Of a stretch of 64,000 bases of DNA, positions 2,841-40,026 are shown piece after piece; the first letter of the stretch is position 1; every line of letters starts with the position of its first letter. The stretch lies in assembly GCA_000004985.1 (NCBI GenBank), contig GG738905.1, one strand, 5' to 3'. This DNA is from Naegleria gruberi. Lineage: Eukaryota. The notes beneath the pieces were generated by a model, which saw only the letters and a list, made by a program, of their open reading frames with translations, made no database searches and was not told where the DNA came from. The position numbers and the translations under genes are program-made.

Positions 2841-5066
2841 ATGGGAAATAAATTTGCCAAAGGTGCTAGGTTTCGTCGACCAAATCAACAAGACGAAACC
2901 TCTCAAAGAAATGATGAAGCAACCTCTCCCTCCCAATATCGTATTGTGAGTACAGAAGAAATTCAAGCCAATTCCTCTCCTTCCAATCATCATCATCATC
3001 CCAACAATAATAATTCCAATTTTTCTTCTTCTGACTCACCAACACTCCGAAAATCCAAATCAAATCGAACAAGAAGTTTGAGTACCTCCACAACAACAGG
3101 TGGTAACAATGGTAGTAGTAGTAGTGGTAGCAATAATGCTCGTTCAAGTCCAGGTACCTCTCCGACAAGTCATCATCAACGTTTCCTTCTGACCAACAAT
3201 CATACAACAACAACAACTCCAAGCCTTGCATCCTCTTCATCAACAACAACAAAAAATTCCCCGCCAAATTCTACAGTAATTTCCAATCAGAAAAAAAAGA
3301 GTGGTGTTGGCGGTTCGTTCAGGTTCCGATCATTGAGAGGGAATAATTCGGCATCGGCATCATCATCGTCTTCATCATCGAGTAAGAAGAGTAAGAAGAG
3401 TAATGAGGGAAAGCATAATGAAAAGCAACAACCTCAATTGCAATTGAATGATTCGAATTTGAATTCATCAGTGCAAAATAATCAACATCATCACCATAAT
3501 AGAACAATATCAAATGGTTCGACACATAGTGGTGCAAGTGGACATTTTCCTCTACTTTCATCATCATCGACTGGAATGATACAAACTGGTGGACATTTTC
3601 ATAGAAAAACTTCAAGTCAGCCTCCACCTAATTGGGCTACTTTTAATTATCAAAATTCTGGAAGTTTATTGTCTCCTAATGGAACTGGTAATCCATTGGT
3701 TAGTTTACAAATGTCTCCAAGTCCTTCATCATGGCAGAATAATTACTTTATCTATAATTATGCAATTTTATCATCATCAGCTCCACAACCTTCCACAGTG
3801 AATAGAAGTTTATCTAGCTCACCAATGAGTGTTTCTTCAGCTGCTTCAAGTGTTAGTAATTCGAGAGATCAATTAGTGGAATATCAATTGATGGAATTCT
3901 CACCACAACAACGATTGGTTCATGAAAAACTGAGGGCCATGTTTCCTTCCATGAAAAATGTGCCTGACTATTTCTTGGCCTATTTTTCATTGGTTCTTTC
4001 AGATGAAATAACTTTGAAGGAGACAATCTTTTCAAATGTCAGTGATATTTCATTCTACTTGGAAATGCAATCCAAGATTGAAGAATTATTCCTCGAAGAA
4101 GAGGAAAGACTCGGAAAATCACCTAGTACTTCTAGAATGGATCATTTCACTCCTAAATCACCAGCTTATCATAGTGTTACCAATGACAATCTTCTTGCGA
4201 ACACTACTGAAGATGGTGACATTAACTATTCTTCCAATTTTTTCAATTCTAATGATGCCTATGAAAATATTACCTCTAACCTAAATTTGAACGACTCATA
4301 TTCTAGTAATAACACTTCTACCGAAAAAGGTGATATTCCTTCCTCAATTATCAATTTCCAATTAGATTTCCTAAATCCTTTCCACATGATGAGCAGAAGT
4401 GAGCTCACTGTTCGCTTAATCATTCTACCAAAAATTTTCAAAAATGTTTTCTATGCAAAGACTGAAGTTGCTCAATTAATGTCGCCTGTATTTTCTACTA
4501 GAAATAATTTACACTTCCGAGATTCCTTTATTCACAACGACGAGTTTGTTGTATGTATCATGATTGGATTTTGGGTACTCGAGTACATTCCATCCTCTGG
4601 AATTATTGTACCAAAACTTATTTATGGACCATCAGAGCTATTTTCATATATACAGAGTATTCCTGTAATTGCCACTCTGAATAATAGTGATGGACACGTA
4701 ATGAGTGCACTCATTTCTACAATAGTTAAATGGAATTGTGAAAAGAAGAATCCAAACACTAACTCTATGACGTTCATTGATGACTTACTAAAGACACTAC
4801 ACATTAACTTTAAATATGCCCATAATTCAACACTTGAAAATTGGAGGAAGGGTAACTCATCTCTTGAATGGACCATACCAAATCATTACAACCTGCTAAA
4901 GGATCCTAGTGTAAACACTACTAGTTCTCGAGTTTTGAAATTCAAATCAATTGAAGATTATGAATTATCAGTGCCTAAAATTGTTCACACCCTGAGTAGT
5001 GAATTGTTAATTTCTAATGGAGGAGTTTTTGATTATCTAAGTTGTCTCCAAAAATGTTTCTCGTAA
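2841..5066 (+). CDS. Hypothetical 741-aa protein with a S/T/N/H-rich N-terminal half and a possible N-myristoylation start, MGNKFA. Single exon.
   Basis: Long uninterrupted ORF. The protein begins MG, with N-K-F-A following. The N-terminal half is low-complexity and the C-terminal ~350 aa is not. I recognise no domain. Confidence 0.5.
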   Translation: MGNKFAKGARFRRPNQQDETSQRNDEATSPSQYRIVSTEEIQANSSPSNHHHHPNNNNSNFSSSDSPTLRKSKSNRTRSLSTSTTTGGNNGSSSSGSNNARSSPGTSPTSHHQRFLLTNNHTTTTTPSLASSSSTTTKNSPPNSTVISNQKKKSGVGGSFRFRSLRGNNSASASSSSSSSSKKSKKSNEGKHNEKQQPQLQLNDSNLNSSVQNNQHHHHNRTISNGSTHSGASGHFPLLSSSSTGMIQTGGHFHRKTSSQPPPNWATFNYQNSGSLLSPNGTGNPLVSLQMSPSPSSWQNNYFIYNYAILSSSAPQPSTVNRSLSSSPMSVSSAASSVSNSRDQLVEYQLMEFSPQQRLVHEKLRAMFPSMKNVPDYFLAYFSLVLSDEITLKETIFSNVSDISFYLEMQSKIEELFLEEEERLGKSPSTSRMDHFTPKSPAYHSVTNDNLLANTTEDGDINYSSNFFNSNDAYENITSNLNLNDSYSSNNTSTEKGDIPSSIINFQLDFLNPFHMMSRSELTVRLIILPKIFKNVFYAKTEVAQLMSPVFSTRNNLHFRDSFIHNDEFVVCIMIGFWVLEYIPSSGIIVPKLIYGPSELFSYIQSIPVIATLNNSDGHVMSALISTIVKWNCEKKNPNTNSMTFIDDLLKTLHINFKYAHNSTLENWRKGNSSLEWTIPNHYNLLKDPSVNTTSSRVLKFKSIEDYELSVPKIVHTLSSELLISNGGVFDYLSCLQKCFS

Positions 5067-7715: not shown

Positions 7716-8471
7716 ATGTGTTGGTCTCTCAGAGCTTCCTTGTTCTTTTCCATCCTAGGAGGATTGATGACTTTGGATCAGATTCGAAGAACACTTGCTA
7801 TTCGAAAGGAGTGGAGAGCACGGAGTATATCTCAAGTATTAATGTACCTGTCGTATACCTTGATGGAATTCCTACAATTTCTACAGTATTGGTTTGGAAT
7901 TGAAGGAACGTGTGGCACCACTTCAAATATTTTCCTGTCAATTGTGGCTCACTTTCTAATTTGGACTCAACCACTGGCACACAATTATTGGTGTTTAAGG
8001 AATACAGCGAAGGGAAGAAGTACTTTCAGATATGCTTTGTTTTGCTCCTTCTCCACCCTAATTCTGGCAAGTATCAGTTTGGCAATGGGTTATTTTCAAG
8101 TTGGTGGATTTGGTGTTGGAATTGAAAATGACAATCTGGAAGGTGTTCCAGGAAATGTTTTGGGAATTGAAATTCAAAATGTGAATACCAAATTGTGTTC
8201 AATGCAAGGACCTAATCATTTATATTGGATGTTTCCCTATCATCCAATATGGGGACATGGCATTTCGTGGTTTACTTGGTTGATGGTTGCTGCATTTCCT
8301 CATTTCTTTAGATATTCAGTTAAGGATAATGATTTCTTTGGAAAGAGTTGGGTGATGGGAAGTGTTGTCGTTGGTGGATGGTTAGTTGCCTTGGCAGTCA
8401 CTTTGACAATTGGCAATTTCCATGAGACACCTTCTTATTGGTGCCTTATTTCAGTTCCATGTTTGGTGTAG
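7716..8471 (+). CDS. Hypothetical polytopic membrane protein of 251 aa with W/F/G-rich TM segments.
   Basis: Several hydrophobic helices are read from the translation: LFFSILGGLMTL, FLSIVAHFLIW, LFCSFSTLILASISLAMGYF, VVVGGWLVALAVTLTIG. The N-terminus may lie upstream or be spliced. Confidence 0.4.
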   Translation: MCWSLRASLFFSILGGLMTLDQIRRTLAIRKEWRARSISQVLMYLSYTLMEFLQFLQYWFGIEGTCGTTSNIFLSIVAHFLIWTQPLAHNYWCLRNTAKGRSTFRYALFCSFSTLILASISLAMGYFQVGGFGVGIENDNLEGVPGNVLGIEIQNVNTKLCSMQGPNHLYWMFPYHPIWGHGISWFTWLMVAAFPHFFRYSVKDNDFFGKSWVMGSVVVGGWLVALAVTLTIGNFHETPSYWCLISVPCLV

Positions 8472-8542
8472 CCCTATGTGTCTGCATTCTTCAATCCTAA
8501 ACGATTCATTGTTCGAGAGGAATTGTATGTCAAAATGCCAAA

Positions 8543-8920
8543 GTCTTCATCTTCTGAATATGATTCAAAGAAAGTTGCCTAATTTTTGAGGGATGAGAAT
8601 TGATGGATTGAAAGCCTCCATCTCATTGAGAATGAGCATTGACAATAATAGTGGAATCATTCAATGTCGATTTGAAACTATTTCAAATAAATTTCGAGTT
8701 GGAATCTGCTACTTTTTTTAAGTGTTTGGTGATAAACGTTGGGTCAATTTGTTACTTTCCATTTTGAGGAGTCATGCAGATTTCTTGAATGAAAGTTGAA
8801 GTGAGTACCCCACTCACTAAGGTTTATTGTAAACTACACACACCAATAAATATGAAAAATTTTTGTCTGAAAAAATTTCAACACAGCAAGATGTTAAAAG
8901 ACAAGATTTACGCTCTTATT
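8543..8920 (+). repeat. Left terminal repeats of the DIRS-like element: A at 8543..8793 followed directly by B at 8794..8920.
   Basis: Near-identical copies sit at the right end in the order B' (12797..12925) then A' (12976..13240), with a 50-N gap between them. Confidence 0.75.
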
Positions 8921-9900
8921 AAAGAACACTCCAGTGATGTTATGGCTAGTATGCCTCCAAACACCATCAAGATGGTATTGGATCTACTTGGCGAAAACCC
9001 TGAAGACAAAGAAAGATGGCTAGAAATTGTTGAAGACGCAGGTGGTGCGTTATTCAACAACTTCTCAACAAAAGCAGAGGCCCAGGAATACTTTACCAAA
9101 GGTATTAAGAAGTTAGCAAAGAGTGGTAAAGTTGCTTCCACTAGAAGTAAGACTACCTCTTTGCAAGAGGCAAGCACTCCAAGTAACATGAATAAGACTT
9201 CTTCTTCATCTCAAATGGCTACCCCAAAGGTTTCTAGCGTTAGTCAGGTTAGAGAGTTCGTCCAAAAGAGAAGGATTGAAGAAACAGACGACAAGGAGTG
9301 GAAGAGAAGAGGTGTTATTCTTGACCCAGCTGATTTCCTTGAAAAGCCAGCTACTTGGAATCTCCCAAGTAGACAACAATGGGAAGAGATGAACCGCCAA
9401 ATCAACATTTTAGTGGTCGGTAAACAGGTTGAAGAAAAGGTTAAGGAAACGTTTCCGCCATTGAGTACCAATAACCAAGCATTGAAAGCAGAGTACGACA
9501 CCTTGAAAGAGGTCGCAGGAAGCGTCTACGGTGCTGCATTGTTGAACAAGGATGAGTCAGTTGCAGACAAGTTGGAGGGTGCCATTGAATATATCAAGGA
9601 GAAAGCGGTACACCTCAAGCTCGTTTCCTTCGACAAGCATCTTGCGGAGAAGGTTCGTATCATTCGTTCAGATAAGACCTGGAGAGAACAGGCTGACCTT
9701 ATTAAGGTCGCCTCCAAGTTGATGAAGGTAGAAAGTGAAGTGATTAAGAATGGAAACTTGCCAGTCATCAATAATATGACTAAAGCTGTTGAAAAGGCAA
9801 GAGATACCTATCCTGTAGCTTCCCACTGTTTCAAATGCGGAGAAGTTGGACACTTGGCAAAGAATTGCAATAAATCCACTTCCAAATACGTCTCGGTAAG
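8789..9900 (+). CDS. DIRS-like element Gag-like protein with a C-terminal CCHC zinc knuckle. This is the 5' part of the 1321-codon open frame.
   Basis: CFKCGEVGHLAKNC lies at about 9829..9870. The upstream ~340 aa are charged and helical, typical of retroelement capsid-like proteins. Confidence 0.6.
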
Positions 9901-10034
9901 TACTATTTTTCGATCCTCCAGATGCGGCAGAGATACGGGAGAGGAAACAAGCTGTTCACTCCATTTCGAATGCTTGGAAGGAGTGGAAGAGAAGAGGAGC
10001 GAAACCTTCGATAATAAGGCTCCTGAAAGAGGGT

Positions 10035-11852
10035 GTGAAAGTGCTTCCTTCAACAGGGTTCAAAAGATCAGTGGAGACAGTAAATTCAGCCAAGTTCTCA
10101 ATAAGGGAACTACAGTGGTTGGAAAGGGAGATAAATTTGCTAAAGAAGATTGGTGCATTAGAAGCTTGTCAGAATGCGGAAGTAGTGGCCAAGTTCAGAT
10201 TGGTACCAAAGGGAGAACAGTACAGATTGATTGTAGACTTGAGACCCTTAAACAAATATTGCCTCATCCCCAAATTCAAGTACAACACATTGAAGAGATT
10301 CTTAGAGTTTATTCCAGAATCTGGAACCATGTTCCTATCATCATTCGATTTGAAGTCTGGGTACCACCAGCTAAAAGTCCACAAGGACTCAAGAAAATTT
10401 TTTGCTATCAACTATTTTGGACAATTATTACAGTTTACTGTGTTGCCCTTTGGCTGGAATGGATCACCATAGAACTTCACTTTGGTAATGAATCAAGCGG
10501 TAATTTTGATGGAATCACCACTCATGCGTCTTTCCAATTATTTGGACGATGTGCAAATAGTGAATGTAGTGGAAGAAACAATAGCCGTACAGAATGTAGA
10601 AATATGCAGGGAAGATGCAAACCAGCTTGGTTTAGTGTTAGAGAGAAGAAAGAGTGTAATGAAACCAATGACAGAATTAGTAGTGTTGGGGTCATGTGTG
10701 AATATTATAACGAAGACACTATCAATGACAGAGGCTACGATAGTGAAGATTACGAATATGATAAAATCAGTACTCACGCGGATTCATTTAGGCAAAACAG
10801 TGTCGGTAAGGAAGATGAGTTCGATAAGCGGGACAGTGATTGCTTATTTGGAATGTTTTATCCCAGCAAGGGTGATGCTTGCTCCCATATTCGCCTTAAT
10901 AGCAAAAACAGTAGTGAAGTACGGATGGAAAGCTTCGGTATTCGTAAGGGATGTCAGGGTCATTCACAACCTTCAATGGATTATTGCAAATATAAGGATG
11001 TGGAATGGAAAACACTTCCAGAGGCCATCATTGGTCTATTACTTCTGGACAGATGCATCAGATTGGGGTTGGGGAGCATATTTCGAGGAGAAGGACTTGA
11101 AGATAGGTGGTCAATGGTCGGAACAAGAAAGAAAACTTCATATCCATATAAGAGAAATGTTAGCGGTGTTAAGAGCTTTGATGGAATGGAAGCATTTGTT
11201 CGAAGAGAGAAAGATCATTATTTATGTGGACAATTGGATTATCTTACACAACATTTTAAAGGGATGGGCAAAAAGCCCACTTATGAGAAGGTTAATTATG
11301 AGCTTCTGGAGAATTATATTCAGCCACAATATAACTCTATTGTCTGTGGAATGGTTACCGTCGGAAGAGAATTATATGGCAGACGGGATCAGCAGGGGGA
11401 TAATGAACGATCCCACGGATTGGGAGATGACTATTCCAGCATTTCAAAGGATTCAGAAGGAACTTCTAGTGGAAATAGGATTCGACAGATTCGCTTCCCA
11501 CGTAAGCTTCAAAGTCAAGCCTTACATGGTAAGAGAAAGAAATTTCAGAGGAGAGAAAGCAGACGCCTTCTCTACATTATGGACAGAAGAGGTTGTAAAT
11601 TTGTGTTGCGTCCCATTCAACTTAATAGGAAGAGTATTGAAACATTGCGAAGAATCAAAAGCTATAATGGTGTTGATTCATCCAGTATGGAAGAGAAGGT
11701 TTTGGTGGCCAATTCTAGAAAAGTATCGTATAAGGAGTGTATCGATGAATGGAAAGGACTTCTTTACAAAGTCCAATACAGGTCACGTAGAACCTTGCAA
11801 GAAATCTTGGCTATTAGAGGCAAGTCTGATAGATTGTCGAACTCGGAACTAA
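10035..11852 (+). CDS. DIRS-like element Pol with RT, RNase H and a methyltransferase-like domain. It lies in the +1 frame relative to gag and YR and is interrupted by an in-frame TAG at 10470..10472.
   Basis: The two frame-0 ORFs 10035..10472 and 10482..11852 are colinear with a canonical RT. The stop falls between motif B (LPFGWNGSP) and motif C (YLDDVQIV). The RNase H catalytic motifs are intact. Confidence 0.7.
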
Positions 11853-12754
11853 TTAGAATTGCCAAGGAGGTCATTAGCTCTCACAGATACAAAGAGAGCA
11901 CTGACAAGAACTACAGAAGATATTGGGTGCGCTTTATTAGATTTAACATTGAAAGAAAGGCTTGTTTTCCTCCTTCAGAAGATAATCTTATTGCTTTCCT
12001 GACGAACATGTTCCTTAAAACACCGTCAGGAAGCAACTGCAGTGCAGCATATGCTGCTATCATGGCATTTGCCAAGAAATTTAGTTTAGATCAGGGAATG
12101 CGAGGAGATAATATTCGAGAAGTTTTAAATGGAATGACTAATCTTTCAAGAGTGGCTAGTGAGAAGGAAAGAAATGCTTGGCAACTAGAATTTATTAGAA
12201 AGTGGGTGAGCATAGGTAGGAGAAGCGTGTCTGACAGAGAATTTGTATTATACACATCTATGATGATCATAGGTCTACGAACTATGTTGAGAGGAAGTGA
12301 ACTTGGTGAACTAAAGACCGAAGATGTTCAATTTCTTCGCTTGGAGAATGGTAAAATGGCAGTCAAATTGAAATGTAGAAGAGTTAAATCTAGTCAGGGT
12401 AGAATGGGTAGAATTATGTGTATAGAGAGTACAGGAAATGATTTGTGCCCAGTATCTTGGTTGAATAGGTGGATGGTGTATAGAGATCAAGGTGATTACT
12501 TATTTGGTAATAGTAAGGCTTTGACTACAATCGACATTTCGTGGATACTGAGATTTGTGGCGTCAGTTATTGGAGTAGATGGATGTTTCTCCTCTCATTC
12601 TTTAAGAATTGGAGGTGCTAATGAAGCAGCTCAAGCAGGTTTTTCTCTCGCTGCTATTCAAGCTTTAGGCAACTGGTCTTCAAATGCGGTTGACAAATAT
12701 TTCAGATCTGAGTTTTTCTATAGTAGAAACGTATCAAAAGAATTGGGTTTCTAG
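11830..12754 (+). CDS. DIRS-like element tyrosine recombinase (YR). This is the 3' part of the long frame-2 ORF.
   Basis: N-terminal SAM-like motif YRRYWVRFIRF. Box I R in LRGSELGELKTEDV. H-x-x-R in HSLRIGG. Catalytic Y in AVDKYF. Confidence 0.7.
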
Positions 12755-12796
12755 TAGGGGCTCATTGTTTTCGTATTTATTGGTGTGTAGTTGGAT

Positions 12797-13240
12797 AAAT
12801 TGAAGTGAGTACCCCACTCACTAAGGTTTATTGTAAACTACACACACCAATAAATATGAAAAATTTTTGTCTGAAAAAATTTCAACACAGCAAGATGTTA
12901 AAAGACAAGATTTACGCTCCCACCANNNNNNNNNNNNNNNNNNNNNNNNNNNNNNNNNNNNNNNNNNNNNNNNNNAAAGTCTTCATCTTCTGAATATGAT
13001 TCAAAGAAAGTTGCCTAATTTATGAGAATGGATGAGAATGGATGGATTGAAAGCATTTCATCTCATTGAGAATGAGTATTGACAATAATAGTAGAATCAT
13101 TCAATGTCGATTTGAAACTATTTCAAATAAATTTCGTTATTGCAATCTGCCACATTTTTTAAGTGTTTGGTGACAAATGTTGGTCAGTTTGTTATTTTCC
13201 ATTTTTGAGGTGTCACGCCGATTTCTTGAATGAAAGATTT
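12797..13240 (+). repeat. Right terminal repeats of the DIRS-like element, B' then A', separated by a scaffold gap.
   Basis: B' is a direct copy of 8794..8920 and A' a direct copy of 8543..8793. B' is preceded by the 19-nt inverted repeat tatttattggtgtgtagtt / aactacacacaccaataaata, which can form a hairpin. Confidence 0.7.
12926..12975. other. Assembly gap of 50 N inside the right terminal repeat of the retroelement.
   Basis: A run of N. Confidence 0.95.
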
Positions 13241-15119
13241 CTCTTGTTGAACGTGATTTCCAGATATCAAGCTAAATGAAAATCCAAATGTTGTCGATAT
13301 TCGTTGAAATTGAAAATTCATGAAGGAAAGCAACATTTCCATACAATTACAATTTGTTTCTTATCACCACTCGAGATGATCTTGTTTCATGTGATCTTTC
13401 GAATGAACTTGTGAAAGATCCTAATTACAAAAGTGAAACTGTTCAATAAAAATTACGTTAAATGCAATGTTTTAAAGATGTTGATGAATATTTCATTTAC
13501 AGTCGTCCTCAAAAGGTAATATACTGTCGAGTTCACTCATTCCCAATTACGAAAACATTTCTAATAATTCATTCAACATCCAATAGAGAATCTTCAAACT
13601 ATGAAAACATGATCTCCACAATCTCCCCATTAAGTCGAATATTCCAAACCAATTAGTACTTTGAATTAAGGGCATTTAACCTATTTGGATGCTTATTTCC
13701 CCTTAATTGGACAATTGCACTACGGTACTTCCTCAACAGTCCATTGAGATTTTTTAGATAAAATACCCAAAATTCAAGGCACCTTGAAAATAGTTTAAAG
13801 GAAGCCATGCATGTGAGATGATGAAGAAGGCATGTTTGCATGCGAAAGTTATGATGAAATCTAGTCATGTACATGTTGGTGCACATGACAGTATGTGAGA
13901 AGATTACATGTCTACTCTTTGATGTTGTAAGGGCATGTCTGAATGAAAATCCACACATTGGATGGAGATGTATGTGTGATGATAAGAGAGATACTCATCT
14001 TGATTAGATCTTTTACTTCTGCAGAGTTGGAAATAATTAAGAACTGTTTGTCAATAGTACTTACCAAGTTTTTGTTTTCCTTCATGTAATCATGGTGATG
14101 TAAATTGACATCATGTTTGTCAAGAATGAACATGAATCAAGTGTTTAGCATGGAGTGGTTGTGCGTCACTACTCCATCAACATGTGAAATTATTTCACAC
14201 CAACAAGAACAAAAGGTAATTTAGCAACAAAACACATATATGGCAAAGCACACCCCCATTATCACCAAGCAAACTGTTCTTTCAAGATGTTCCATCACCT
14301 CACTTGAATCTCGGTTAGTGGTGCTACCATTGAAAGTTGTTGATTTAAATCTTGTCCACCAAAAGATGAGAGGAAGTAGTGCGCACCTCATTGTTGCCTG
14401 GTTGGTGATGTTGTTCTTGTTGTTGAATTGGTAATAACCAACTCAAACAAACAGCCTCAACAAGAGTGCATTTCATTGCTTTGCAATTTGCTTTCTTTTT
14501 TTCTAAAGTGTTGTTCATCATCATATCGCTTAATATTTATTTTAAGAGAGTAATCAGGTGGTGTGTGATTCTTGGACTAGTAGTGCGCAGAGTGATTATT
14601 AGTATTATTATTATTAATTATAATCAATTATTTATATCTTTAAAATCATCAACACATCAAATATTTAATAAGGGTTTGAGTTGTTTCCCGCCAAAAATAT
14701 AATTGACTCTTGAAAGGGGTAGGTACCTACCTGATCATTTATTTATAATATTATTTAATATTATAATATCTAAGATCTTGCTTCGAAACTCTATCAATTG
14801 ATTTCTTTTAAATTTTTAAGAACTGTAGAATCATAAGAATTACCAAATAGAACGGACCAAAGCAAAAGAGAGTAAAATCTGCGATATATCTCAAATCACA
14901 TCCAATTTAATCTTAAGAATCCGAGATTCTATTTTTACGCCAAGTCGCTACAAGTACGGAAGTAAAGAGCCATAGAGTGAAATTTTTTTGCTATTAGATT
15001 GTGGACTCCATTGTGTTTTAGTGGTCGAGTGACAGTTTCAAAGTTATAAGAAACTCTAAAAAATTGAACACATCTCTCACTTTGAGGTTCCATTACTGAG
15101 AGAATAGTTTCGAATAATT

Positions 15120-27162: not shown

Positions 27163-30100
27163 TTATATTCTTCTTTCACTTTGTGAGTAAGTGTTGGCAT
27201 TTCTGTTACCACCATAATTGTTTTGTTGGGAAGCATAAGGACTTTGTCTAGCTTGGGAGTATGGGCTAGTAGATGGTTGTTGATTGGATGGTTGTTGATT
27301 GTTGTTGGCAGTAGTGGAATAAGGTGATTGTTGGGCAGCAACTGTGGCAGCGTATGGACTTTGGGAGTAAGGTGATTGTTGAGGAGTTGAGGAAGCATAA
27401 GGTGATGGGGCATACGGACTTGTTTGTGGTGTAGAACTGTATGGAGACTTTTGATAATTATTGTTAGAATTGGACGAGTATGGACTATTTTGATAATTTG
27501 GAGGATTAGTTCTTTGACCTCTATCATATGAATCATCTCTTCTTTGATACCTACTATCACCACCATAATTTCTATTTTCATTTCTATTATCATTTCTATT
27601 ATCATTTCTATCAGAATAGTTGCGATTATTATTTCTATCACCAGAATAGTCTCTGTTGTATCTGTTGTTATTATCATTTCGGTTATTATCATAGTTTCTG
27701 TCAGAATTATTTCTATATGAATTATTTCTGTCATCTCTATTGTCATTTCTTTGGTAATCCCTGTTATCATTACGTTGATAATTCGATCTGTCACCTCTGT
27801 CATAATTTCTATTATCTCTGTTATCATTACGTTGATAGTTATTGTCTCCTCTATTTCTATTGTGGAAGTTGCCACTTCTTGAAAAGTCTACACGTTCTCT
27901 ATTGTTATAGTCGTGTCTGCCTCCACCTCCATTTCTTCTAAAGCTCAAATAGTTATTTCTTGGTTTACCATTCATAATATTATCAATCATTTCTCTTGAA
28001 GAGCAGAAAGTGACAGTCTTTTCACCATTTTGTCCAATTACAACTGGAACACTGCCTGAATCCAAAATTGTTGGCAACATTCTTGGAGGAAGTGTTACAT
28101 TTGGTAATAATTTGGCAATATACTTGCACTTGGATTTTTCAACCAATGGGAAATCAAAACAAGCACTAACAGCTGCAGTCTCTGCAACATCATCTAATAA
28201 ATCAGCTTTCCATGGTACCTTAACCATATCTGAAGGTGCCACCGAGAGTGGATCTTGTCTGAATGTACCTGCAACATCTTTTGATGCCTTATTAAAGTCA
28301 ACAAAGGAACTATCATCCAAATAGCATGACATGATTGAATTTTGGAGTGGATGTTCAAAGTGAACATATAGAGTAGTATTGCCTAGAGTATTTCTTTCCT
28401 TTTCCTCACTTGACAATTTAGGTTCAACAGTCTTGATGGCTGCTTGTAATTCTTCTTGATCAATGAAAGGAAGTAAGCATACACCCATCCATGTCTTGGT
28501 CTTTCCATTCAAATCAATCTTGAAATCTGTAGGGTAATAGTTAATAATTGGACTATCATCAGACAACATCAATTCACGATAACATGGAGGAAGAGCATGA
28601 GAACTTCTTGGAGGTAAAACACCCAACAATTGAGAGAAAGGTTTGTAAGGTTGACCTTTCTTAAAATTGAGACCAAGTTTTGAACTATCAACCATGGCCA
28701 TATCAGAAGCAAACGGAGCAAAATGGTAAGGATAGAACCAATCCCAAGAATCACAACCAGTATAATAATATCTAAATACCCAAACCAAACCTTCCAAATA
28801 TTTCAAAGAAACATCCCAATATTCATCAGTTCCAATATTAATATCCATCTTGTCCTTGTAATATCTTTCCTTCCATCCCTGAGAACCCAATTTCACTGTA
28901 TCAGGGAATTTTTCGGTATCAACATTCTTTGCTTCATCAAGTCTTAATTTCAAGCTATCTTGATATTGTTTGGAATCCATTTTAGAGATGGAAGATGAGG
29001 CAGCACCTTCAACCGAAGTTGTGGCTGTAGATGATGGTTCGGATGGTTGTTCCTCAGTTTCTTTTAACTTTTTTTCAACAGGAGCTTCCTCTTCCAATTC
29101 TTCATTTTCCTCCTCATCCTTTTTTCTTTTACCTAGGAATGATTTTTCAGGTGTATTTTCCAATCCTTGCTTTTTTCTGAAATCTTCATATGGATTTGTA
29201 ATGTGACCAAACTTTCCACGATGTTCTTTCAAAATTGGAACAATTTCAACACCTTCAGGTTTGTATGATTGATCCTTTCTTTCCTTTTGTTCACGCTTAC
29301 GTTGTTCTTGTTGTTTTTTAAAGTATTCTTCTCTCTTTTCTCTGACAGAGAATATTTTATCTTCATACTCTGAAACTTGTTTGAGCAGATACTGGACACG
29401 TGAAACATTGACATCACCATTTTCTGTAAGATAACCACCCATAACAGGTAAACTCTCCTTGTACAATGCAAGTAACAAGTCAATTGCACCTTCTCTAATA
29501 TCCAAAGAAGGTAAATGAGGTAAGAAATCGTTACCAACAAAGAAGCAAATAAAGACAAAATCATCCAAGCCTCTCTCAAATTCATATTGGAACGGAAGAC
29601 GATCAGTTTCTTGTAGCAATTCAATTTCCAAATATTCTCTCAGTACACTAATGTGTAAAATTTCTAATGGCTTGTATTCATAGGGATGGGCACCACTATT
29701 CTTCTTTTCCACATCATAACCCTTTCCTCCAGAATTTTTACCAAAATTGACTTTTTCTCTTAGATTGTAAAAGTATGGTTCGTGTGTTGCAAGAGCAAGC
29801 ATTGTAAGATCAGCATCCAATCCATGGATAACATGACTAGTATTTGGATTATATCCTTTCATTTCTCTTTGGGATCTAATAAAATCCATAATTTTATGTT
29901 CTCCTTCACCTGGAACATTTGCATCACTTAAAATAATTTTGACCTTTTTCCATCCTTCATCAGTGGTCAACTTCATGTGAATGAAATATCTTAGAGCTTT
30001 TCCTAGACGATACATGAAAGGAGTACCAGGAGTAATCACGTTTGAATCCCAATTATCTCCTGCAGGGTGAATTTCAAAATATTCATCCTCTTCCTCCTCC

Positions 30101-30771
30101 TGATTATTATTACTATCTTCAAATTCTTCATTGAGTGGCATATCATTATCTTCCATTAATAAACTAGCTAATTCCTTATTCTTGAAAGAAGAAAGTTTTT
30201 TCTTTTTCAAAATTCTAATTGGTTTCTCTGCAATAGAATCAATCTTTTCTGGTGGTGGTTCTAATCCACGACTAATTAATTCCTCACGTAAATCTCTTTC
30301 AACTTTCTTTTGATCTTCCATATCTTTTGCAGATTTATAACGACGAGCACGTTGTTGATTTTGTTTGGCTCTCGGAGCAGGACCATCAACAGCCATGAAT
30401 AAAACTTTTCTTGGTCTGATGGCTGCATAAATTCTCTCTACATATTCAAAGATCTTTTCATACATTTCTTCTTCTGTTTTAGGTGCTTCTTCATCTTCTG
30501 GATGGCAACAAGGGTGAATAATACCATTCATATCCAAATATAAATTATCAAATTCTTTTCCGTTAGGATTTGGTTTGGTTGTATCAATTCCTTGGGTTAC
30601 AATTCTAACAGTCTTCTTTTTAATGGTTGGTAATTGTCCATCAGCAACCTCAAAATCATCATAATTTGATGAAATTGTTGTTTTTTGTACTGTAGGTATT
30701 TCTTCAACACATTCCGATACAATATTTGGATATTTCTCTGTTAAATATCTATATAATCCTGGTACACCCAT
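27163..30771 (-). CDS. 5'-3' exoribonuclease of the XRN family (Xrn2/Rat1-like), 1202 aa, with a long RG/YD/N-rich low-complexity C-terminal tail.
   Basis: It starts MGVPGLYRYLTEKYP, as in XRN MGVPKFFRWL. The acidic catalytic-core motifs are present: LYLDMNGIIHPC, MAVDGPAPRAKQNQQRARRYK, HGLDADLTMLALATHEPYF, CFFVGNDFLPHLPSLDIREGA. Single exon. Confidence 0.85.
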   Translation of the reverse strand: MGVPGLYRYLTEKYPNIVSECVEEIPTVQKTTISSNYDDFEVADGQLPTIKKKTVRIVTQGIDTTKPNPNGKEFDNLYLDMNGIIHPCCHPEDEEAPKTEEEMYEKIFEYVERIYAAIRPRKVLFMAVDGPAPRAKQNQQRARRYKSAKDMEDQKKVERDLREELISRGLEPPPEKIDSIAEKPIRILKKKKLSSFKNKELASLLMEDNDMPLNEEFEDSNNNQEEEEDEYFEIHPAGDNWDSNVITPGTPFMYRLGKALRYFIHMKLTTDEGWKKVKIILSDANVPGEGEHKIMDFIRSQREMKGYNPNTSHVIHGLDADLTMLALATHEPYFYNLREKVNFGKNSGGKGYDVEKKNSGAHPYEYKPLEILHISVLREYLEIELLQETDRLPFQYEFERGLDDFVFICFFVGNDFLPHLPSLDIREGAIDLLLALYKESLPVMGGYLTENGDVNVSRVQYLLKQVSEYEDKIFSVREKREEYFKKQQEQRKREQKERKDQSYKPEGVEIVPILKEHRGKFGHITNPYEDFRKKQGLENTPEKSFLGKRKKDEEENEELEEEAPVEKKLKETEEQPSEPSSTATTSVEGAASSSISKMDSKQYQDSLKLRLDEAKNVDTEKFPDTVKLGSQGWKERYYKDKMDINIGTDEYWDVSLKYLEGLVWVFRYYYTGCDSWDWFYPYHFAPFASDMAMVDSSKLGLNFKKGQPYKPFSQLLGVLPPRSSHALPPCYRELMLSDDSPIINYYPTDFKIDLNGKTKTWMGVCLLPFIDQEELQAAIKTVEPKLSSEEKERNTLGNTTLYVHFEHPLQNSIMSCYLDDSSFVDFNKASKDVAGTFRQDPLSVAPSDMVKVPWKADLLDDVAETAAVSACFDFPLVEKSKCKYIAKLLPNVTLPPRMLPTILDSGSVPVVIGQNGEKTVTFCSSREMIDNIMNGKPRNNYLSFRRNGGGGRHDYNNRERVDFSRSGNFHNRNRGDNNYQRNDNRDNRNYDRGDRSNYQRNDNRDYQRNDNRDDRNNSYRNNSDRNYDNNRNDNNNRYNRDYSGDRNNNRNYSDRNDNRNDNRNENRNYGGDSRYQRRDDSYDRGQRTNPPNYQNSPYSSNSNNNYQKSPYSSTPQTSPYAPSPYASSTPQQSPYSQSPYAATVAAQQSPYSTTANNNQQPSNQQPSTSPYSQARQSPYASQQNNYGGNRNANTYSQSERRI

Positions 30772-30905: not shown

Positions 30906-33900
30906 TCAAATTCTTAGCATGTTGAAAACTTCCTTCTTGAGGGAATCTAATAGGATTGGTTTGTAAATGACAGAGTCAAAACCATGACCCACTAGAGTAT
31001 CAACACTTTCCCAAGTATTGGCTGTAATGGCTAAAATTGGTGTTTGTTTTTCAGTTTCGTTTTGTTTCTCTGCTTTACGAATCATTTCACATGCTTCCTT
31101 ACCTGAAAGAATTGGCATGAAACAATCCAACAAGATAATGTCGTACTTCTTTCGTTTGTACATGTTGAAACATTCCATTCCATCACAGGCTACATCAATA
31201 TCTTTAAATCCAATAACTCTTAGCATTTTGGTGAGGATTTTCCTATTAACTGCATTATCATCTACAACAAATATTGATTTCTTACTAATGTCAGGTCGAA
31301 TAGGACTGGATGGGTGGTGAGATTCTGATCTTTCACTTGTTGGAGAGGCTGTTTCTACTCCCAAGAATGTTGGCATGCTGCCTACTTCAACAATTGATTG
31401 TCTTGGGGTACAACTGGCTTTCTTGCAATGTGCATTGTGCGGTTTCTCTTTCAACACCAAATCAGCCAAATCAACAAACTTGATCGGTTTGGTCAGGTAT
31501 GAGAAAGTTTGATGATGTCTTGTTTCTCCTCTGAATATTGAAGGAATTATCATGCAATTCAATTGTTCCACAAATCTAGTGCCTTGAATTTGAGTACAGA
31601 ACGATTCTGGGCAGAAAATCATATATTTACAGGAATGATCTGCAACATGGAGAATATTTTCAGATTCTTGAACAAAATCTGCATGAGTTTCAAAATCTTG
31701 AATAAGCACAACTCGTTTGAACAAGTTCAAATAGGAAGACAGTACTTGTCTAAAAACTGGATCCTCATCAATAATGATAATACTCAAATCTTGTGATTGA
31801 TCTTCACTTAGAACGTCCAATAAATTTTCTGGATTCAAATTAATGTGAGTTGAGGAAGAAGAGCCTTCAGAATCTGTAACTTGCTCTTGTTTGTCCATTT
31901 CTTCGAGAGGGATATAGACGTTCATTGTTGTTCCTTCTCCTACTCTTGAGTTGACAATAATCTTTCCTTCCATTTTCTCAATAATTTGCTTAGTAATATT
32001 CAATCCAAGTCCATTTCTATTGGTATTGATGAGACTACTTCCTCCATTGTTCAATTTTGTAAATTCTGATTGTTTAAAGTAGTGCTCGAATCCTTGGGTC
32101 TTTTCTTGTTTTTCTATAATGTGGAATGGTTTGAATAAACTTCCAATTTGAGACTCTGAGATACCACATCCATTATCTTGACATTCAATCTTGAGATAGA
32201 AGCAATTCTTCTTAATTTCCTCTTCTTGGAAGTGTAGTTTCAATTCCTCATCCTTTGCCTTTTTACATTTGAGCAGGACTTGACCTCCCTTAGTATACTT
32301 GATCGAATTTGAAACCAAATTCATTACAATTTGACTGATCCTCACAGAATCTCCCATTAAAAACATTGGTACTTTGGAAACATCAAAGAATGAATGTAAA
32401 GTATTCTTCTTTTCAATTGCTAATGGAGAAAATACACAAGTTATGGATTCTATCAAACACATGACATTAAATTGTTCCACCTTCAGTTTGATATTTCCAA
32501 TTTCCATTGAACTCATTTGAAGAGAAGAGGATAGGATGTGTAATAAGAGTGCCGCATTTTCATGAACATCATTAATCATTTCTGAGAAGGAAGCGTTTGA
32601 AACCATGCAATGTTTACAACTCTCTGAACAATCTTCACTCTTATAAATATTCTTAATTAATTCTACGGAACCAATAATGGCATGAAGTGGATTTCTCAAT
32701 TCATGAGATAGTGATGCAATAAATCTCGTCTTTTCATAATTTGAAACTCTTTCCTTTGCAATTTCTACTTGATGACTAGTGTACTGATTATTTTTCTCTG
32801 TCAAGTGTTTGGAGAAGAAGAAAGATCCGATTAATACTGTATTCTGAATTACAAACACTTCCAACACTTTAACATAAAAGTCTGCTCTTTCCTTCTCACT
32901 CAGTAAATCGTACCACATGTAAAAAGAAGTAAGTAAGGAAATGGTGGTGAAAGCAATCAATTGCCCACATCCAAATAATATATAACTAGACTTGTAATAA
33001 AACGACATGGACACTACAAAAATCTTAAATGTTGTAATGATATGCATAGGACTTAATGGTCCATACTTGATTTGCATTGCAATTTGTACAAAATCAGCAA
33101 GAGATATTCTCGATAAGTTAATCATGGAAAAGGCATGTAAGGTTGTAACCTTATCTAATATAATGTTCACGCCCATATGTATAAAATGTTCCACAACTAG
33201 TACTATAACGAAGAATAACGGTCCTATATCCCATGATGCTATTGCTCCAAATATAATTGGCATGATGGCCAGATAGGACCCGACTGTTGAGTGGCAACTT
33301 TGTTGTTGTTTCACTTGTTGTAAATCTACTTCGTCTTTGATCGCTGCTGATGAATTAGCACTCCCTGCTGTGGAAGATGAAGGAGATGGAGGAACTGAAT
33401 TGTTATTGGTGGTGGTAGATGAAGAATTATTAGTTGGACTATTTGAAGAGTATTTGGCCTTAATAGAAGAGGATGGCGATTCGGGGGCCATCTCTTCCTG
33501 GTTTGGCATTCTCTTCACCACAATATTGCCATTACTTGTTTGATGGTCTAATTTTCGGAAATTCTTACTTTTCATTATTGAGGCACTCATTGGTGATGAG
33601 AAATTCATATTATTTCTTATGCTATTGATGGTGCCTGATCTTCTATCCTTCTTTAATTGTTGTTGAGTGGCCACAGTGTCAAATTTGTCTTGAAGAAGTG
33701 AAGGAGGAGTTAAGGAAGGTGAAGATGTACTCGTTGTTTGTGGGGAAGAGGATGATGAGAGAAATTCATCATCTATTGCTTCCATAGTTGGTGTTGTTGC
33801 TGCATTAAAAGTGTTGTTATTATCATCTTCATCTTTATGAGGGACGGAAATTCGGATGGGAGAATTAGGTTTATAGTGATGAGAATTGTTGTTCGTTCTC

Positions 33901-34040
33901 ACTGAACCTTCTTGTTCATTATTGAAACGATCATCACCACCAATTGATGTTGTTGTTATTATATTGGAACTATTTGATTTGAAATTGGATATCAAAGATG
34001 TTGTCATGACTATGATGGCCGTGGAAGTTATCTTTTTCAA
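30906..34040 (-). CDS. Hybrid sensor histidine kinase of 1044 aa. The N-terminal region is S/T-rich and possibly extracellular or disordered, followed by TM segments, HisKA, HATPase_c and a C-terminal receiver domain.
   Basis: H-box ASLSHELRNPLHAIIGSVE. N/G boxes QIVMNLVSNSIKYT and DNGCGIS...GLGLNITKQIIEKMEG. Receiver IFVVDDNAVNRKILTKMLR...DIILLDCFMPILSGKEACEMIRK. Confidence 0.85.
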   Translation of the reverse strand: MKKITSTAIIVMTTSLISNFKSNSSNIITTTSIGGDDRFNNEQEGSVRTNNNSHHYKPNSPIRISVPHKDEDDNNNTFNAATTPTMEAIDDEFLSSSSSPQTTSTSSPSLTPPSLLQDKFDTVATQQQLKKDRRSGTINSIRNNMNFSSPMSASIMKSKNFRKLDHQTSNGNIVVKRMPNQEEMAPESPSSSIKAKYSSNSPTNNSSSTTTNNNSVPPSPSSSTAGSANSSAAIKDEVDLQQVKQQQSCHSTVGSYLAIMPIIFGAIASWDIGPLFFVIVLVVEHFIHMGVNIILDKVTTLHAFSMINLSRISLADFVQIAMQIKYGPLSPMHIITTFKIFVVSMSFYYKSSYILFGCGQLIAFTTISLLTSFYMWYDLLSEKERADFYVKVLEVFVIQNTVLIGSFFFSKHLTEKNNQYTSHQVEIAKERVSNYEKTRFIASLSHELRNPLHAIIGSVELIKNIYKSEDCSESCKHCMVSNASFSEMINDVHENAALLLHILSSSLQMSSMEIGNIKLKVEQFNVMCLIESITCVFSPLAIEKKNTLHSFFDVSKVPMFLMGDSVRISQIVMNLVSNSIKYTKGGQVLLKCKKAKDEELKLHFQEEEIKKNCFYLKIECQDNGCGISESQIGSLFKPFHIIEKQEKTQGFEHYFKQSEFTKLNNGGSSLINTNRNGLGLNITKQIIEKMEGKIIVNSRVGEGTTMNVYIPLEEMDKQEQVTDSEGSSSSTHINLNPENLLDVLSEDQSQDLSIIIIDEDPVFRQVLSSYLNLFKRVVLIQDFETHADFVQESENILHVADHSCKYMIFCPESFCTQIQGTRFVEQLNCMIIPSIFRGETRHHQTFSYLTKPIKFVDLADLVLKEKPHNAHCKKASCTPRQSIVEVGSMPTFLGVETASPTSERSESHHPSSPIRPDISKKSIFVVDDNAVNRKILTKMLRVIGFKDIDVACDGMECFNMYKRKKYDIILLDCFMPILSGKEACEMIRKAEKQNETEKQTPILAITANTWESVDTLVGHGFDSVIYKPILLDSLKKEVFNMLRI

Positions 34041-35999: not shown

Positions 36000-38900
36000 A
36001 TGACAGCTTCAACCACAGTGTTAATATGCCTGTTGTCTTACTTGTTTCTTTCCTTCTTCTTTACTTATAACTATGCAGCCGATCAAATTTACTATTCGAA
36101 TCGTCCAACTTCACAAATGACGAAACCTTTCGTATATCAATTAGCAAGTGGTGCACCTGTTGCCCTCTCGATCAAATATTTCGATAACACAGGTGATTAC
36201 GACAATGTATACCACTTCATCCCTGACAATCCCTCAGCAAAATCCAACTTTACAATGCGTTTCTATGTTGATGGATTTTCGAATATTGCTTGGAGTGCTT
36301 TATTGACTAGTTTGGTATCTGGATGGAATTCAGTGTCGAAATGTGGAGTTTTAGTCAAGTCAAGCTTGTCTAGCTCTAGAGAATCGACCACTTCACAAAA
36401 TTCCACATTCTTTAATACACCTCTTTCCATTTCGAATAGTGATAAGTTTAATTGTGTGGTTTCGGCTAATTTTGCAAAAGCTGGATTGTTTGAAGTGTTG
36501 GTTACTCCAAAATCTAATTATGAAGAGGGTGTTTATTTATTTGAATATACTCCTGTGGCTGGTTTAACAGCTGATCAATCTTTATTTCAGGCAGAATTGG
36601 TCGTCTATTCGAAAACCACCTTTACGAAACTTGTTGGAAATCCGGTGGTTGATCCAAACAGTTTATTGGAAATTCAGGTAGCTCAACCAAGTATAATTGA
36701 TCCAACTAATCCACCAAATCTCGATAACGAAACTTCCACTTCTTACATTCCATTGAGAGATAACTTTGGAATGAATGCTATTGTTTCTTCTGCAGTTTCT
36801 AATAAGATGAATTTGATTTATACATGGCAAGTTATGAGAGTTTACAAATTGAACACTGCCATAATTGATGTCATGCCAAAAACTAACTATCTCGGTAAAT
36901 CCAATACTCTCCAAGCCATGTATCAACAAAACAGTTTAGGATACTCCTCTCTCGTTTTATCTCAAGATAAAATACTCTATGCTGATACAGCTTACAAGGT
37001 AGTGGCCTCAGTTTACTCCTCCTCTAAGACTCTCATTGCTAGAAAGATCAAATACTTGAGAACGCCACTCGATTTCTCTCCAGTCTTGTCAACTGTTGGA
37101 ACTGTTTCACCAACCATTGTCAATTTCACTGATCCACTCACTTTCAAAGTAACCTCTAATTTCAAATATAGCGACAATTCAGATGCCACTAATTTACAAT
37201 TTGCATTTGGTTATTTGGATACTTCCCTAATTAAGAGTTCTGATGTCATGAGCTTTAGTAATTTGGACAATGTTCCTTACTCGACCATTATGCAAGGATT
37301 TGTGAGGGTGACTGATTATTCCACTTCCAAAATTATTTCTTCCTACCTTCCACCAAGTTATGCTTTGGGAGAAAATCAAAAATCTTGGAAGACTCTTTTG
37401 TTTGTGAAGGATTTAAGTTTTGGAAATGTGAAAACTTATGCTTTGAATGGAGTTATTGTGAAACCAGTGGCTCTCGAGGAGATTTATCGATTTGTATTAC
37501 CTTCAGCATTTATGAGTGTTTCCATTCCACAATTGAAAGGAGTAGTTGGCTTCACAAGAAAATCCTATCAAAGCACTGCCAATTCAACACTGATTGACTT
37601 GGTTCAAAGACGTTTATTTGCTGTCATTCAGAACAAGTTGGCAACCATGACTGAAAATGATACTGACAAGTTGGCAGATCTTGCTAGAATTCTCGATATT
37701 TGGGCATACAATGCAAAGAAAACTATGGCGAATATGGTAAACACAGATGGAGATGCTATTTTCACACTCTTGTACAATTTCATTTCCATGATTAAGAAAG
37801 ATGCCAATCAAAACAAGTACACTGGTGATGTCACTTCCAAACTTCCACTTGGAATGAAGGATGGTACTGTTTTGGATATACTGACCTCTCTGTTGTCTAG
37901 TTGGATGAAAGTTTCTCAATTCAAATCGAAAACTGCATCACTTGTGAAAATGCTTTCGACTAGTATTGTTGATAGTATTTCACCAAGTGAAGAAAGAAGA
38001 TATTCAACTGATTCTATTGTATTTTCTATTAGAAAGGATTATGCTTCTAATTTTAATGGAACTACTTTAACAACTGATTCTTCATATCATTCAGTTGTCA
38101 TGCCAACTGTTTCAGTATTCAATTCAACGAAAGGTCTGTATGGAACTGAATTTGTAACCTATTTGGAAAATCCAAACAATTCCACATCATCCAGTGGTGG
38201 AAACATTACCAGTGATGTAATTTCCTTGAGATGTATCAATCCATCAGGTGATTACTTCCCTCTTAGCGAATTGACTGATCCAATTGTTTTGAATTTCAAC
38301 TTGTCCATAGCCAACATTTCAAATCCAGATTTATTGGTCTGTAAATATTGGAATGAAACTGTCAGTGATTGGTTGTCCAATGGTTGTACAAGAACTGCCC
38401 TTCTCACATACGGTGATTACTATGTAGTTGAGTGTTCCTGTGATCACACCACTCAATTTGCAACATTTGTTGAGTTTCCAACTTCAACTACCAATTTAAC
38501 TTTAGCACAAAAGCAAGCTTACTACATTTTATGGGGATTTGATATTGGAATTGGTGTCATATTTGTGATTGTGAGCTTGATAATGTTATTACTGATTTGT
38601 ATCTTTAGAAATTCACAACCTGTCAAGGCCAAGTACATTGCTCCATTTGTGGGAATGACAAGTATCTTTTTAGAATCATTGTTGAGCTATGTTGTTAAGT
38701 CATCGCTCATGATTGGTTTCACAGCAACCAACTCGACCAATATTTCATTCTATTTGAATACTATTACATATTGTTCTGCTGTTATTATTAGTGTGGCTTT
38801 CGCAGAAACAGGAGAAGATTTGGCTTCTACAGATCATTTCCTCAAAGAGTTTGTACGTTTTCCTTGTGGTATGCTTGCCCTTGGTTATCTTTACCTATTT

Positions 38901-40026
38901 CACAGGATTTTCCATTGGAAGAATTGTTCAAGAATCACTCAATTCAGACACCTCTAAGCAAATTTTCACTTCTTCCATCTATACCATAGTTACCTCGAGT
39001 TTTATGGGTGCAATTCTTCTATTCTCACTTGTTGCAGTTTCCTTAATATTCATAGTTGACTTGATTTATGCCTTTGCTGTTGAATATAGAAAACCATACA
39101 TTGATACATCAGAGATTTCAGGAACTCTTGTGGAAATGAGTGAATCTCAAAGCTCTTCTGCATTCAGCACTGATTCGAATAGCAATTCCAAGAAGAAATT
39201 CAAAGATTTGGAAAGCTTTAAAAAGGCAAAGGATATTACCATGTCTTCCATGTACAAATTCTTTGTCCAAGATGATCCTTTATTCTTCCGTTGTGAGAGT
39301 TTGCTTTTCATTTTCTGTTTGGGAGTGTTATTGATCTCGTATGTGTTTGGAATTGTTGGATTAGGTTTCTTTACACTCACTGGAAAGGCATTGAGTACAA
39401 GTGAAAGCGCATTCGAAACTTCACTCGTTATGGATATCATCAGATTAGTTCTTTCAGTTGTGTACTTTGTCTTGTACATTCTGGTCTTTGGAGATTTGTC
39501 ACTTTTGATTTACATTTTCAAATATAGAAAGTACAGAGTTTCGTCCACTTCAGGTTCCACAAGTTTTTCATCTGAATCTCGATACGACAATGAATTACAA
39601 GAAATTCTGAATGACGGCTTAGCTTATTCCTTATTCGAAAAGTTCACAGTCAAGGAATTCTCAAAGGAAAACCTCCTCTGTTACAATTCCCTACAAGAAC
39701 TCGAAGATGAAAAACAATTTTATCAAAAAGATTTGGAAAATCAAGTGAAAATGTTGGAAGAAATCATTGAAAAATATTTAACACAAACTAGTTCATTTGA
39801 AGTTAACATTCCTTCGAACACAAGAAAGAATCTCATTAATTTGATTAAATCAAAGGAAGGTCTTACAAAGGAAAATGTAAAAAAGTCGCTGGAATCTTTG
39901 AAATCTGATATTCTGGTCAACTTGACTGATACCTTCTCAAGATTTACTACTTCTCAAAGTTATGAATTTTGGACGCAAATCAAGGAAGAAAAGGAAAGAT
40001 TGATGGCAAGAAATAAAATGGTTTAA
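36000..40026 (+). CDS. Large receptor combining an extracellular region of about 790 aa, a GPS/GAIN-type autoproteolysis motif, a 7-TM domain and a C-terminal RGS domain. The frame changes from 0 to +1 near 38800..38915 through an unresolved short intron or indel.
   Basis: Signal/anchor MTASTTVLICLLSYLFLSFFF. GPS motif LVCKYWNETVSDWLSNGCTRTALLTYGDYYVVECSCDHTTQFATFVEF, ending just before TM1 (YILWGFDIGIGVIFVIVSLIMLLL). Several TM helices continue in ORF 38791..40026. RGS signature LAYSLFEKFTVKEFSKENLLCYNSLQELEDEKQF...SQSYEFW. Confidence 0.65.

Follow-up and report, generated by a model that had tools for sequence, protein, structure and literature searches.

A stop-free reading frame joins gag to the tyrosine recombinase gene across the pol region of a DIRS-order retrotransposon of Naegleria gruberi and recurs in related elements

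A retrotransposon in which one reading frame is kept free of stop codons from gag, across the whole of the overlapping pol region and on into the tyrosine recombinase (YR) gene, was analysed in a window of 64,000 nucleotides (the whole stretch of DNA under study) from Naegleria gruberi (GenBank assembly GCA_000004985.1, contig GG738905.1). As judged from its gene order of gag, reverse transcriptase (RT)-RNase H-methyltransferase (MT)-like pol and YR with direct terminal repeats, the element belongs to the DIRS order. Frame 2 (1-based position mod 3 = 2) contains no stop codon from the TGA at 8786 to the TAG at 12752, and the respective open reading frame (ORF; 8789..12754, + strand, 1321 codons, 3966 nt) joins gag to YR. 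With Pfam, a CCHC zinc knuckle (amino acids 346-361), a SAM-like domain (amino acids 1024-1097) and the catalytic tyrosine recombinase domain (amino acids 1157-1304) were located in this ORF, and RVT_1 and RT_RNaseH were located in frame 0 over the same nucleotides. The long frame with gag at its 5' end and YR at its 3' end, as proposed in an initial annotation from the letters of the DNA, was confirmed by the stop map and Pfam. The reading of the Pol domains in frame 0 across the same nucleotides was upheld too, with the start moved from 10035 to 9900, where frame 0 opens; the stop map of the + frames (8400-13400) shows frame 0 to be stop-free over 9900-11852 except for one TAG at 10470. The base composition had been taken as about 33% GC and was corrected to 0.40 for the element, against 0.34 for the remainder of the window.

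A stop codon in frame 2 over Pol can arise only where a Pol codon with T as its last base precedes one that begins with AA, AG or GA. As a null model, the synonymous codons were permuted within Pol with the protein and the codon usage preserved (20,000 shuffles). The number of frame-2 stops expected over Pol was 30.8 ± 3.9 with a minimum of 12 among the shuffles, against 0 observed. T-ending Pol codons were present at 0 of the 193 risk positions, compared with 133 of the 456 positions elsewhere (probability about 1.25e-29). Frame 1 over the same 650 codons contained 84 stops, with 75 expected. Stop avoidance specific to one frame means that selection sees a reading frame, and therefore that translation is involved. 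The open frame 2 is clearly not a product of chance, and its openness is maintained by selection.

The Pol query returned two proteins at 53-54% identity and about forty at 23-29%, many of them with RVT_1 and Dam matches, and metagenome contigs were obtained for 11 distinct related elements with Pol identities to the window element of 27-57%. Scans of metagenome contigs with a Pol alignment and with YR yielded no confirmed loci. The frame at -1 relative to Pol is stop-free across Pol and on into YR in 7 of the 11, namely in the sister lineages L001, L002/3 and L017 (53-57% Pol identity) and in the distant elements L004/5, L006, L009 and L012 (27-30%). Over Pol, 0 stops were counted in L001 and L002/L003, against 30 and 24 expected, respectively, and X-YR (X being the frame over Pol) is continuous in one frame in L017. 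The open X-YR frames of L004/5, L006, L009 and L012 are 1294, 1023, at least 1073 and 990 codons long, respectively, each with 0 stops against 14-22 expected. The other four elements have no overlap and contain 82 stops with 80 expected (L007), 52 with 61 expected (L008), 34 with 53 expected (L010/11) and 61 with 69 expected (L013-16); they cluster together in a crude neighbour-joining Pol tree. Because these four relatives keep the expected stop density, Pol composition alone is insufficient to explain the open frame. From the stop counts and the tree, the open frame is read as an old, all-or-none trait, and wherever present it is always the Pol -1 frame and always ends in YR. Many frame-2 stops in the pol region of otherwise intact copies had been named as the observation that would overturn the finding; the sister copies and several distant relatives were found to be stop-free, in its favour.

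In 5/5 undecayed elements (the window element, L004, L006, L009 and L012), the open frame reaches back to the 3' end of gag or beyond. L001 and L002 are decayed copies. Compared with the window element, L001 has a 7-nt and a 1-nt deletion, each of which shifts Pol and X together; when both are allowed for, gag, X and YR lie in one frame with Pol at +1, as in the window. In L002 (its frameshift allowed for), the open frame begins where Pol does, about 100 nt past the gag stop, and the metagenome protein P0177 contains gag, CCHC, X and the C-terminus of YR in one frame. The frame of L012 opens 40 nt ahead of the gag stop. A run of nine G is located at the gag end of L012 (L012:2620-2640), just within the start of the overlapping X-YR frame, and is a possible slippage site for entry into the recombinase frame. 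An open frame that always ends in YR and never starts inside Pol points to translational access to YR.

In the frame-2 ORF, the gag part (8789..9895, +) is 24% identical to that of L001 and contains the CCHC zinc knuckle (Pfam zf-CCHC) at 9824-9871. Its in-frame ATGs are at 8789 (the first), 8852 and 8891, of which the one at 8891, inside the 5' direct repeat, is the probable gag start. The gag/pol switch window (9900..9930, +) follows the TAA at 9897 in frame 0. Pol (frame 0, 9900..11852, +) was identified by Pfam and is 54% and 53% identical to P0001 and P0002, respectively. It contains RT (about 10209-10700, with YLDD), RNase H (about 11040-11237) and an MT-like domain (about 11415-11762). 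On the part of Pol that precedes the TAG, RVT_1 scored 29.4 bits, slightly below its cut-off of 29.6; RT_RNaseH scored 32.4 bits, and RVT_1 reached 71 bits in P0001. The MT-like region has no direct Pfam match in the window element and was recognised by alignment with the Dam-family (PF05869) region of P0003, in which the DRF...PF and WxP motifs are aligned and the NPPF motif reads CVPF in the window element. X comprises the 630 stop-free frame-2 codons overprinted on Pol (9902..11791, +; Pol frame -1) and is followed by the recombinase proper (frame 2, 11792..12754, +), which is 47% identical to the YR of L001. The recombinase consists of a SAM-like N-terminal domain (11858-12079; Phage_int_SAM_4 at 21.7 bits, under its 27-bit cut-off) and a catalytic domain (12257-12700; Phage_integrase at 37.4 bits) with the LRGSE, HSLR and DKYF motifs. 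Its overlap with the Pol ORF is limited to the final ~60 nt of the latter, and the recognised YR domains begin directly past the Pol stop. No integrase (rve) or protease family was found among the Pfam matches of the frames of the element.

With a little more than even confidence, frame 2 is read here as a gag ORF fused in frame to an N-terminally extended YR ORF with X bridging the two, so that Gag-X-YR would be the default product and Pol would be reached by a +1 shift. Ribosomes would start at the gag AUG of a single full-length RNA, stay in frame and cross X to give a Gag-X-YR protein of about 150 kDa. Fusion to Gag would then be the form in which YR is produced and probably recruited, much as Pol is delivered by Gag-Pol. 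Because the frame is kept open without conservation of its amino acids (as given below), X is taken as a putative translational bridge, of which the openness would be selected and the sequence would be free to drift. Pol would be made as Gag-Pol by a +1 frame change in a window of ~25 nt (9900-9925), near 9908. Entry into Pol from gag by a +1 change is suggested because the Pol frame has no ATG for its first 143 codons, yet its N-terminal segment (EIRER..A.HSISN.W; conserved from 9930 at latest) is kept between the window element and L001. Frame 2 reads AUU UUU CGA at the switch window (T5 run at 9906-9910, then CGA), and this is a candidate +1 shift site; CGA accounts for 3.4 per thousand codons in the host ORFs, and L001 has a T4 run at the position of the T5 run. 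From these features we infer that Gag-X-YR is produced, and also where and by what kind of shift Pol is entered. A Gag-X-YR product and frameshift-based expression had been offered in the initial annotation as alternatives, and probably both are true, for different products.

Gag-Pol is produced by +1 frameshifting in Ty1 (CUU AGG C) and Ty3 (GCG AGU U). The window element agrees with this geometry in the +1 relation, the 25-nt window, the UUU CGA and the Pol frame without its own AUG, and it resembles Ty1 and Ty3 in the short gag/pol overlap and in a slippery codon followed by an uncommon Arg codon. It differs from them in that the candidate heptamer is not a known one and was proposed from the sequence, and in that the zero frame runs 950 more codons past gag into the recombinase.

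Several points weigh against the fusion reading. The +1 site is a weak one, since CGA, though uncommon, is not the rarest codon of the host and L001 has TTT TGT in its place. Default production of Gag-X-YR would make YR equimolar with Gag, which would be unusual for an integration enzyme. In L004, L006 and L012, X-YR is out of frame with gag, so that a general bridge would need a different, putative recoding event in each lineage. In addition, the host genome is represented by one copy of the window family, and all the comparisons stand at saturated synonymous divergence, which leaves room for weak constraint on X.

Splicing was considered as another entry into Pol and was rejected. An intron from the GTAAGT at 9896 (GT(9896)...CAG(9921)) would be 26 nt long and would land in the closed frame 1, a 22-nt intron (GTACT...CAG) reaching frame 0 would be implausibly short, and the homologous L001 introns would be 53 or 30 nt long and lead into wrong frames. 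An exact 20-nt repeat (AAGGAGTGGAAGAGAAGAGG) is present at 9293-9312 and 9978-9997 with a spacing of 685 nt (1 mod 3), and it encodes KEWKRRG twice, in gag (frame 2) and at the N-terminus of Pol (frame 0). A deletion, a template switch or a GT(9312)...AG(9996) splice between the two copies would fuse gag at residue ~175 to Pol in frame. Such a fusion is unlikely, as it would lose the Pol N-terminal segment that is also conserved in L001; the context of the 3' splice site is, in addition, rich in purines.

In place of a Gag fusion, YR could be translated from internal AUGs in X, reached by leaky scanning, reinitiation or a subgenomic RNA, with X supplying alternative N-terminal extensions. The X of the window contains 11 in-frame ATGs, and the metagenome gene calls P0175 and P0178 are X-YR proteins that start within X. 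Such initiation would have no need of openness back to gag, which is nevertheless present in all five undecayed elements, and no ATG occurs in the first 1.1 kb of the open frame of L012. Under the scanning model, the established model of eukaryotic initiation, initiation 1-3 kb into an mRNA and past dozens of AUGs would be improbable. This route to YR is accordingly considered unlikely.

It was also considered that X is a folded or sequence-specific protein, for example a DNA/RNA-binding or multimerisation module of the recombinase, with purifying selection on both frames. Openness of the frame persists among lineages at 27-30% Pol identity, and the X sequences of the sisters are detectable by phmmer (E = 1e-11 to 1e-16), a similarity at the level that Pol conservation alone would impose. 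For the estimation of constraint, Pol-guided codon alignments were made for 10 pairs (Pol identity from 0.27 to 0.68), and the X-frame identity was compared with that of a closed control frame and with the four-fold sites of conserved Pol residues. X-frame identity ranged from 0.14 to 0.41, as did that of the control frame (0.14 to 0.41), and X was at or below the control in 10/10 pairs. Identity at the four-fold sites was 0.20-0.34 (about 0.3), equal to the background of the non-overlapped YR and gag and saturated. X gave no Pfam family even at E<=5, and an exhaustive search with phmmer through 1.84 billion representative proteins gave 5 matches, all of them X-frame gene calls of sister elements and none from outside, so that the proposed search of the middle segment of frame 2 against protein databases led to no homologue beyond the sisters. 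A word-indexed protein search with the entire 1321-aa ORF gave nothing at E<=1e-5, but it also missed relatives recovered by the Pol query and by the exhaustive search, and so carries no information. The composition of X is less hydrophobic than that of Pol, with more R, S, G and C, in line with what an overprinted frame would be expected to show.

On these alignments, the detectable selection on X is stop avoidance, and its amino-acid sequence does not appear to be conserved beyond what Pol imposes, in a test that is weak because all the pairs are saturated. Amino-acid constraint on the second frame beyond that of the first, by which dual coding is recognised, was not found in this same test. 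Selection on both frames, as claimed at the outset, therefore holds for stop avoidance and fails for dual coding, since X identity never exceeds that of the control frame, and a truly dual-coding X is held to be improbable. X resembles the overprinted genes of RNA viruses and retroviruses in being a second frame over an older enzyme gene, in having no homologues beyond its clade and in its biased, less hydrophobic composition. Viral overprinted proteins normally have an amino-acid constraint of their own, whereas in X the openness alone is conserved.

A further explanation is RNA surveillance, in which the openness would keep gag-frame ribosomes from an early termination that exposes the genomic RNA to nonsense-mediated decay, and YR would be made by another route. 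Retroelements with an early gag stop require protection from this decay, and the gag frame does reach the 3' end of the coding region in the window and in the L001/P0177 family. In L004, L006, L009 and L012, however, gag ends at its own stop and yet the separate X-YR frame is stop-free, so that the openness does not track the gag frame. The open frame moreover ends in YR in every case, which points to the expression of YR, and surveillance is judged quite improbable.

Chance, base composition or an assembly artefact, for which the purine-rich coding strand of the element (positive GC and AT skew) and the gaps in the scaffold might speak, is refuted by the shuffles, which never fell below 12 stops (analytic probability about 1e-29), by the 84 stops in frame 1 of the same DNA, and by the relatives, in which the same frame is open in independent assemblies and four elements have a normal stop density, and it is given practically no weight.

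The Pol frame is not intact in this copy, being interrupted in RT by the in-frame TAG (10470..10472, +), which lies between LPFGWNGSP and YLDD at a position where the relatives have F or Y. The TAG is probably a nonsense mutation of a Tyr codon, as TAC leads to TAG in one step. The frame-2 codons at this site are sense codons (ATA GAA), and the TAG spares the gag-X-YR frame. The alternative Tyr codon TAT at 10470 would put a stop in frame 2 (its final T followed by AA) and is thus forbidden there, in agreement with the overall stop avoidance. Because of a TAG where Phe or Tyr is found in the relatives, the RT of this copy is most likely dead, and the copy is probably non-autonomous; it could supply Gag and YR in trans, with RT coming from other copies. 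A ciliate-type code (TAG as Gln) was rejected, as the host has ORFs of up to 1524 codons that contain no stop when read with the standard code; it is further ruled out by the host being a Naegleria and by the F or Y of the relatives.

The 5' direct terminal repeat (A1, 'Q1'; 8796..8915, +) covers the gag start and is 99% identical to the 3' direct repeat (A2, 'Q2'; 12797..12919, +), which begins 42 nt past the YR stop. Directly behind the latter is a 50-N scaffold gap (12926..12975), so that the true 3' end of the element is missing from the assembly; the gap would conceal the sequence past the 3' repeat, including the B2 of any split direct repeat. Runs of exactly 50 N, all scaffold gaps, are present in the window at 12926-12975, 58443-58492 and 63120-63169. 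No B1 was recognised in the window element, next to the A1 and A2 found at 99% identity, and B2 would fall in the gap. The repeat search gave the direct repeats and one 21-nt inverted segment and no inverted terminal repeats (ITRs), of which the right one could be hidden by the gap. The 21-nt segment (12768-12788) is the reverse complement (95%) of 8838-8858 and of 12842-12862, one in each copy of the direct repeat. Its pairing could form a hairpin with a 53-nt loop at the 3' end of the RNA or cDNA, which would recall the internal complementary regions of DIRS elements.

Outside the direct repeats, a 256-nt block (P1; 8540..8795, +) is 90% identical, with small indels, to P2 (12976-13236). P2 ends at the exact point at which the element starts after P1 (…GAATGAAAG, then the element). 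P1 and P2 are probably flank or target sequence outside the element, and they look like a duplicated flank, an empty-site copy or a join of diverged haplotypes or repeats rather than a long terminal repeat.

The element agrees with the DIRS order in an RT/RNase H of the Ty3/gypsy-related type and in a tyrosine recombinase, with no DDE integrase and no aspartic protease among the Pfam matches. The MT-like domain downstream of RNase H, found in DIRS1-like elements and PAT, is present as judged from the alignment with P0003. The ITRs and internal complementary region of DIRS1-like elements (sensu Piednoël 2011) were not found in the element, the 3' end of which is cut by the gap. PAT-like elements have split direct repeats (A1...B1-A2-B2), an MT domain and a zinc-finger Gag (Szitenberg et al. 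2014, PMC4157794). The window element is like them in A1 and A2 around the coding region, with A2 downstream of YR, in the CCHC Gag and in the MT-like domain, as well as in its relative L006, in which A1...B1-A2-B2 is complete (1-55/4276-4330 and 4153-4185/4441-4473, 100% identical); it is unlike them in that B1 and B2 were unrecognised, with the 50-N gap behind A2. Its layout looks like that of a split-direct-repeat (PAT-like) member of the order, the deciding part being hidden by the gap. Among the other relatives, L004 has direct terminal repeats (67-193 and 4605-4731, 100% identical) and L012 has perfect 149-nt ITRs. The long pol/YR overlap therefore occurs with both types of termini, split direct repeats in L006 and ITRs in L012.

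In DIRS1-like elements the overlap of Pol and YR 'may be considerable', the catalytic YR domain sits in the non-overlapping 3' end, and a 'long ORF overlap' was recorded in half of 28 annotated elements (Piednoël et al. 2011, PMC3266345). The long overlap is present in all five fungal elements and in D. discoideum DIRS1-2, and in no mollusc element; Dictyostelium DIRS-1, RoDIRS1, MciDIRS1, PblDIRS1, AmDIRS1/2, TnDIRS1a and XtDIRS2/3 are among the elements with a long overlap (PMC3266345). Reviews of D. discoideum DIRS-1 and of the Xenopus elements agree on the overlap in general terms. The window element has the same long ORF overlap, frame 2 being open over all of Pol with the YR domains past the Pol stop. 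It is like the DIRS1-like long-overlap elements in gag, in the RT-RNase H-MT pol, in the YR ORF extended upstream over pol and in the YR domains at the 3' end, and the yes/no spread of the overlap is alike as well, about half in PMC3266345 and 7/11 here. It is unlike them in its direct terminal repeats in place of ITRs and an internal complementary region, and in an extended YR ORF that is continuous with gag as one 1321-codon ORF. The initial annotation had set the overlap of the whole pol region in contrast to the classic DIRS-1; this contrast does not hold, since such an overlap has already been described, is common (PMC3266345) and is present in 7 of the 11 elements here. The central feature is already known, and the window element is not exceptional within the DIRS group. 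In the literature searched, no description of the overlap as a selected, non-conserved frame, as dual coding or as overprinting was found, nor any mention of an in-frame gag-X-YR layout.

The host genes of the window are mostly long uninterrupted ORFs. They include an XRN 5'-3' exoribonuclease (27163-30771, -), a hybrid histidine kinase with a receiver domain (30906-34040, -), a GPS-motif protein (36000-40026, +), the ORF of which overlaps the next one (38791-40026) with a possible intron or frameshift, and a protein with pentapeptide repeats and TLDc (45748-47583, -). The XRN protein shares 67% identity with its Naegleria lovaniensis counterpart and 60% with the one in N. fowleri, which places the host in Naegleria.

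To our knowledge, DIRS-type elements are among the least understood retrotransposons, and the way in which three products are translated from their one RNA has not been established. The finding adds no new class of system. It turns the 'long ORF overlap' from a structural remark into a quantified statement, that of strong, ancient and all-or-none selection for openness, and narrows the mechanism to translational access to YR. A Gag-X-YR protein of ~150 kDa and a +1 shift at 9908 are predicted. For annotation, the lesson is not to take the longest ORF of an element like this for 'the' polyprotein. Tentatively, and with somewhat less than even confidence, YR may be made, in a large and ancient section of the DIRS order, solely at the C-terminus of a giant fusion, behind an unconstrained overprinted bridge of ~600 residues. 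If true, this would be a distinctive way of expressing a gene at the 3' end of one capped eukaryotic RNA, and X would be an unusually long protein-coding stretch selected for its openness rather than for its sequence.

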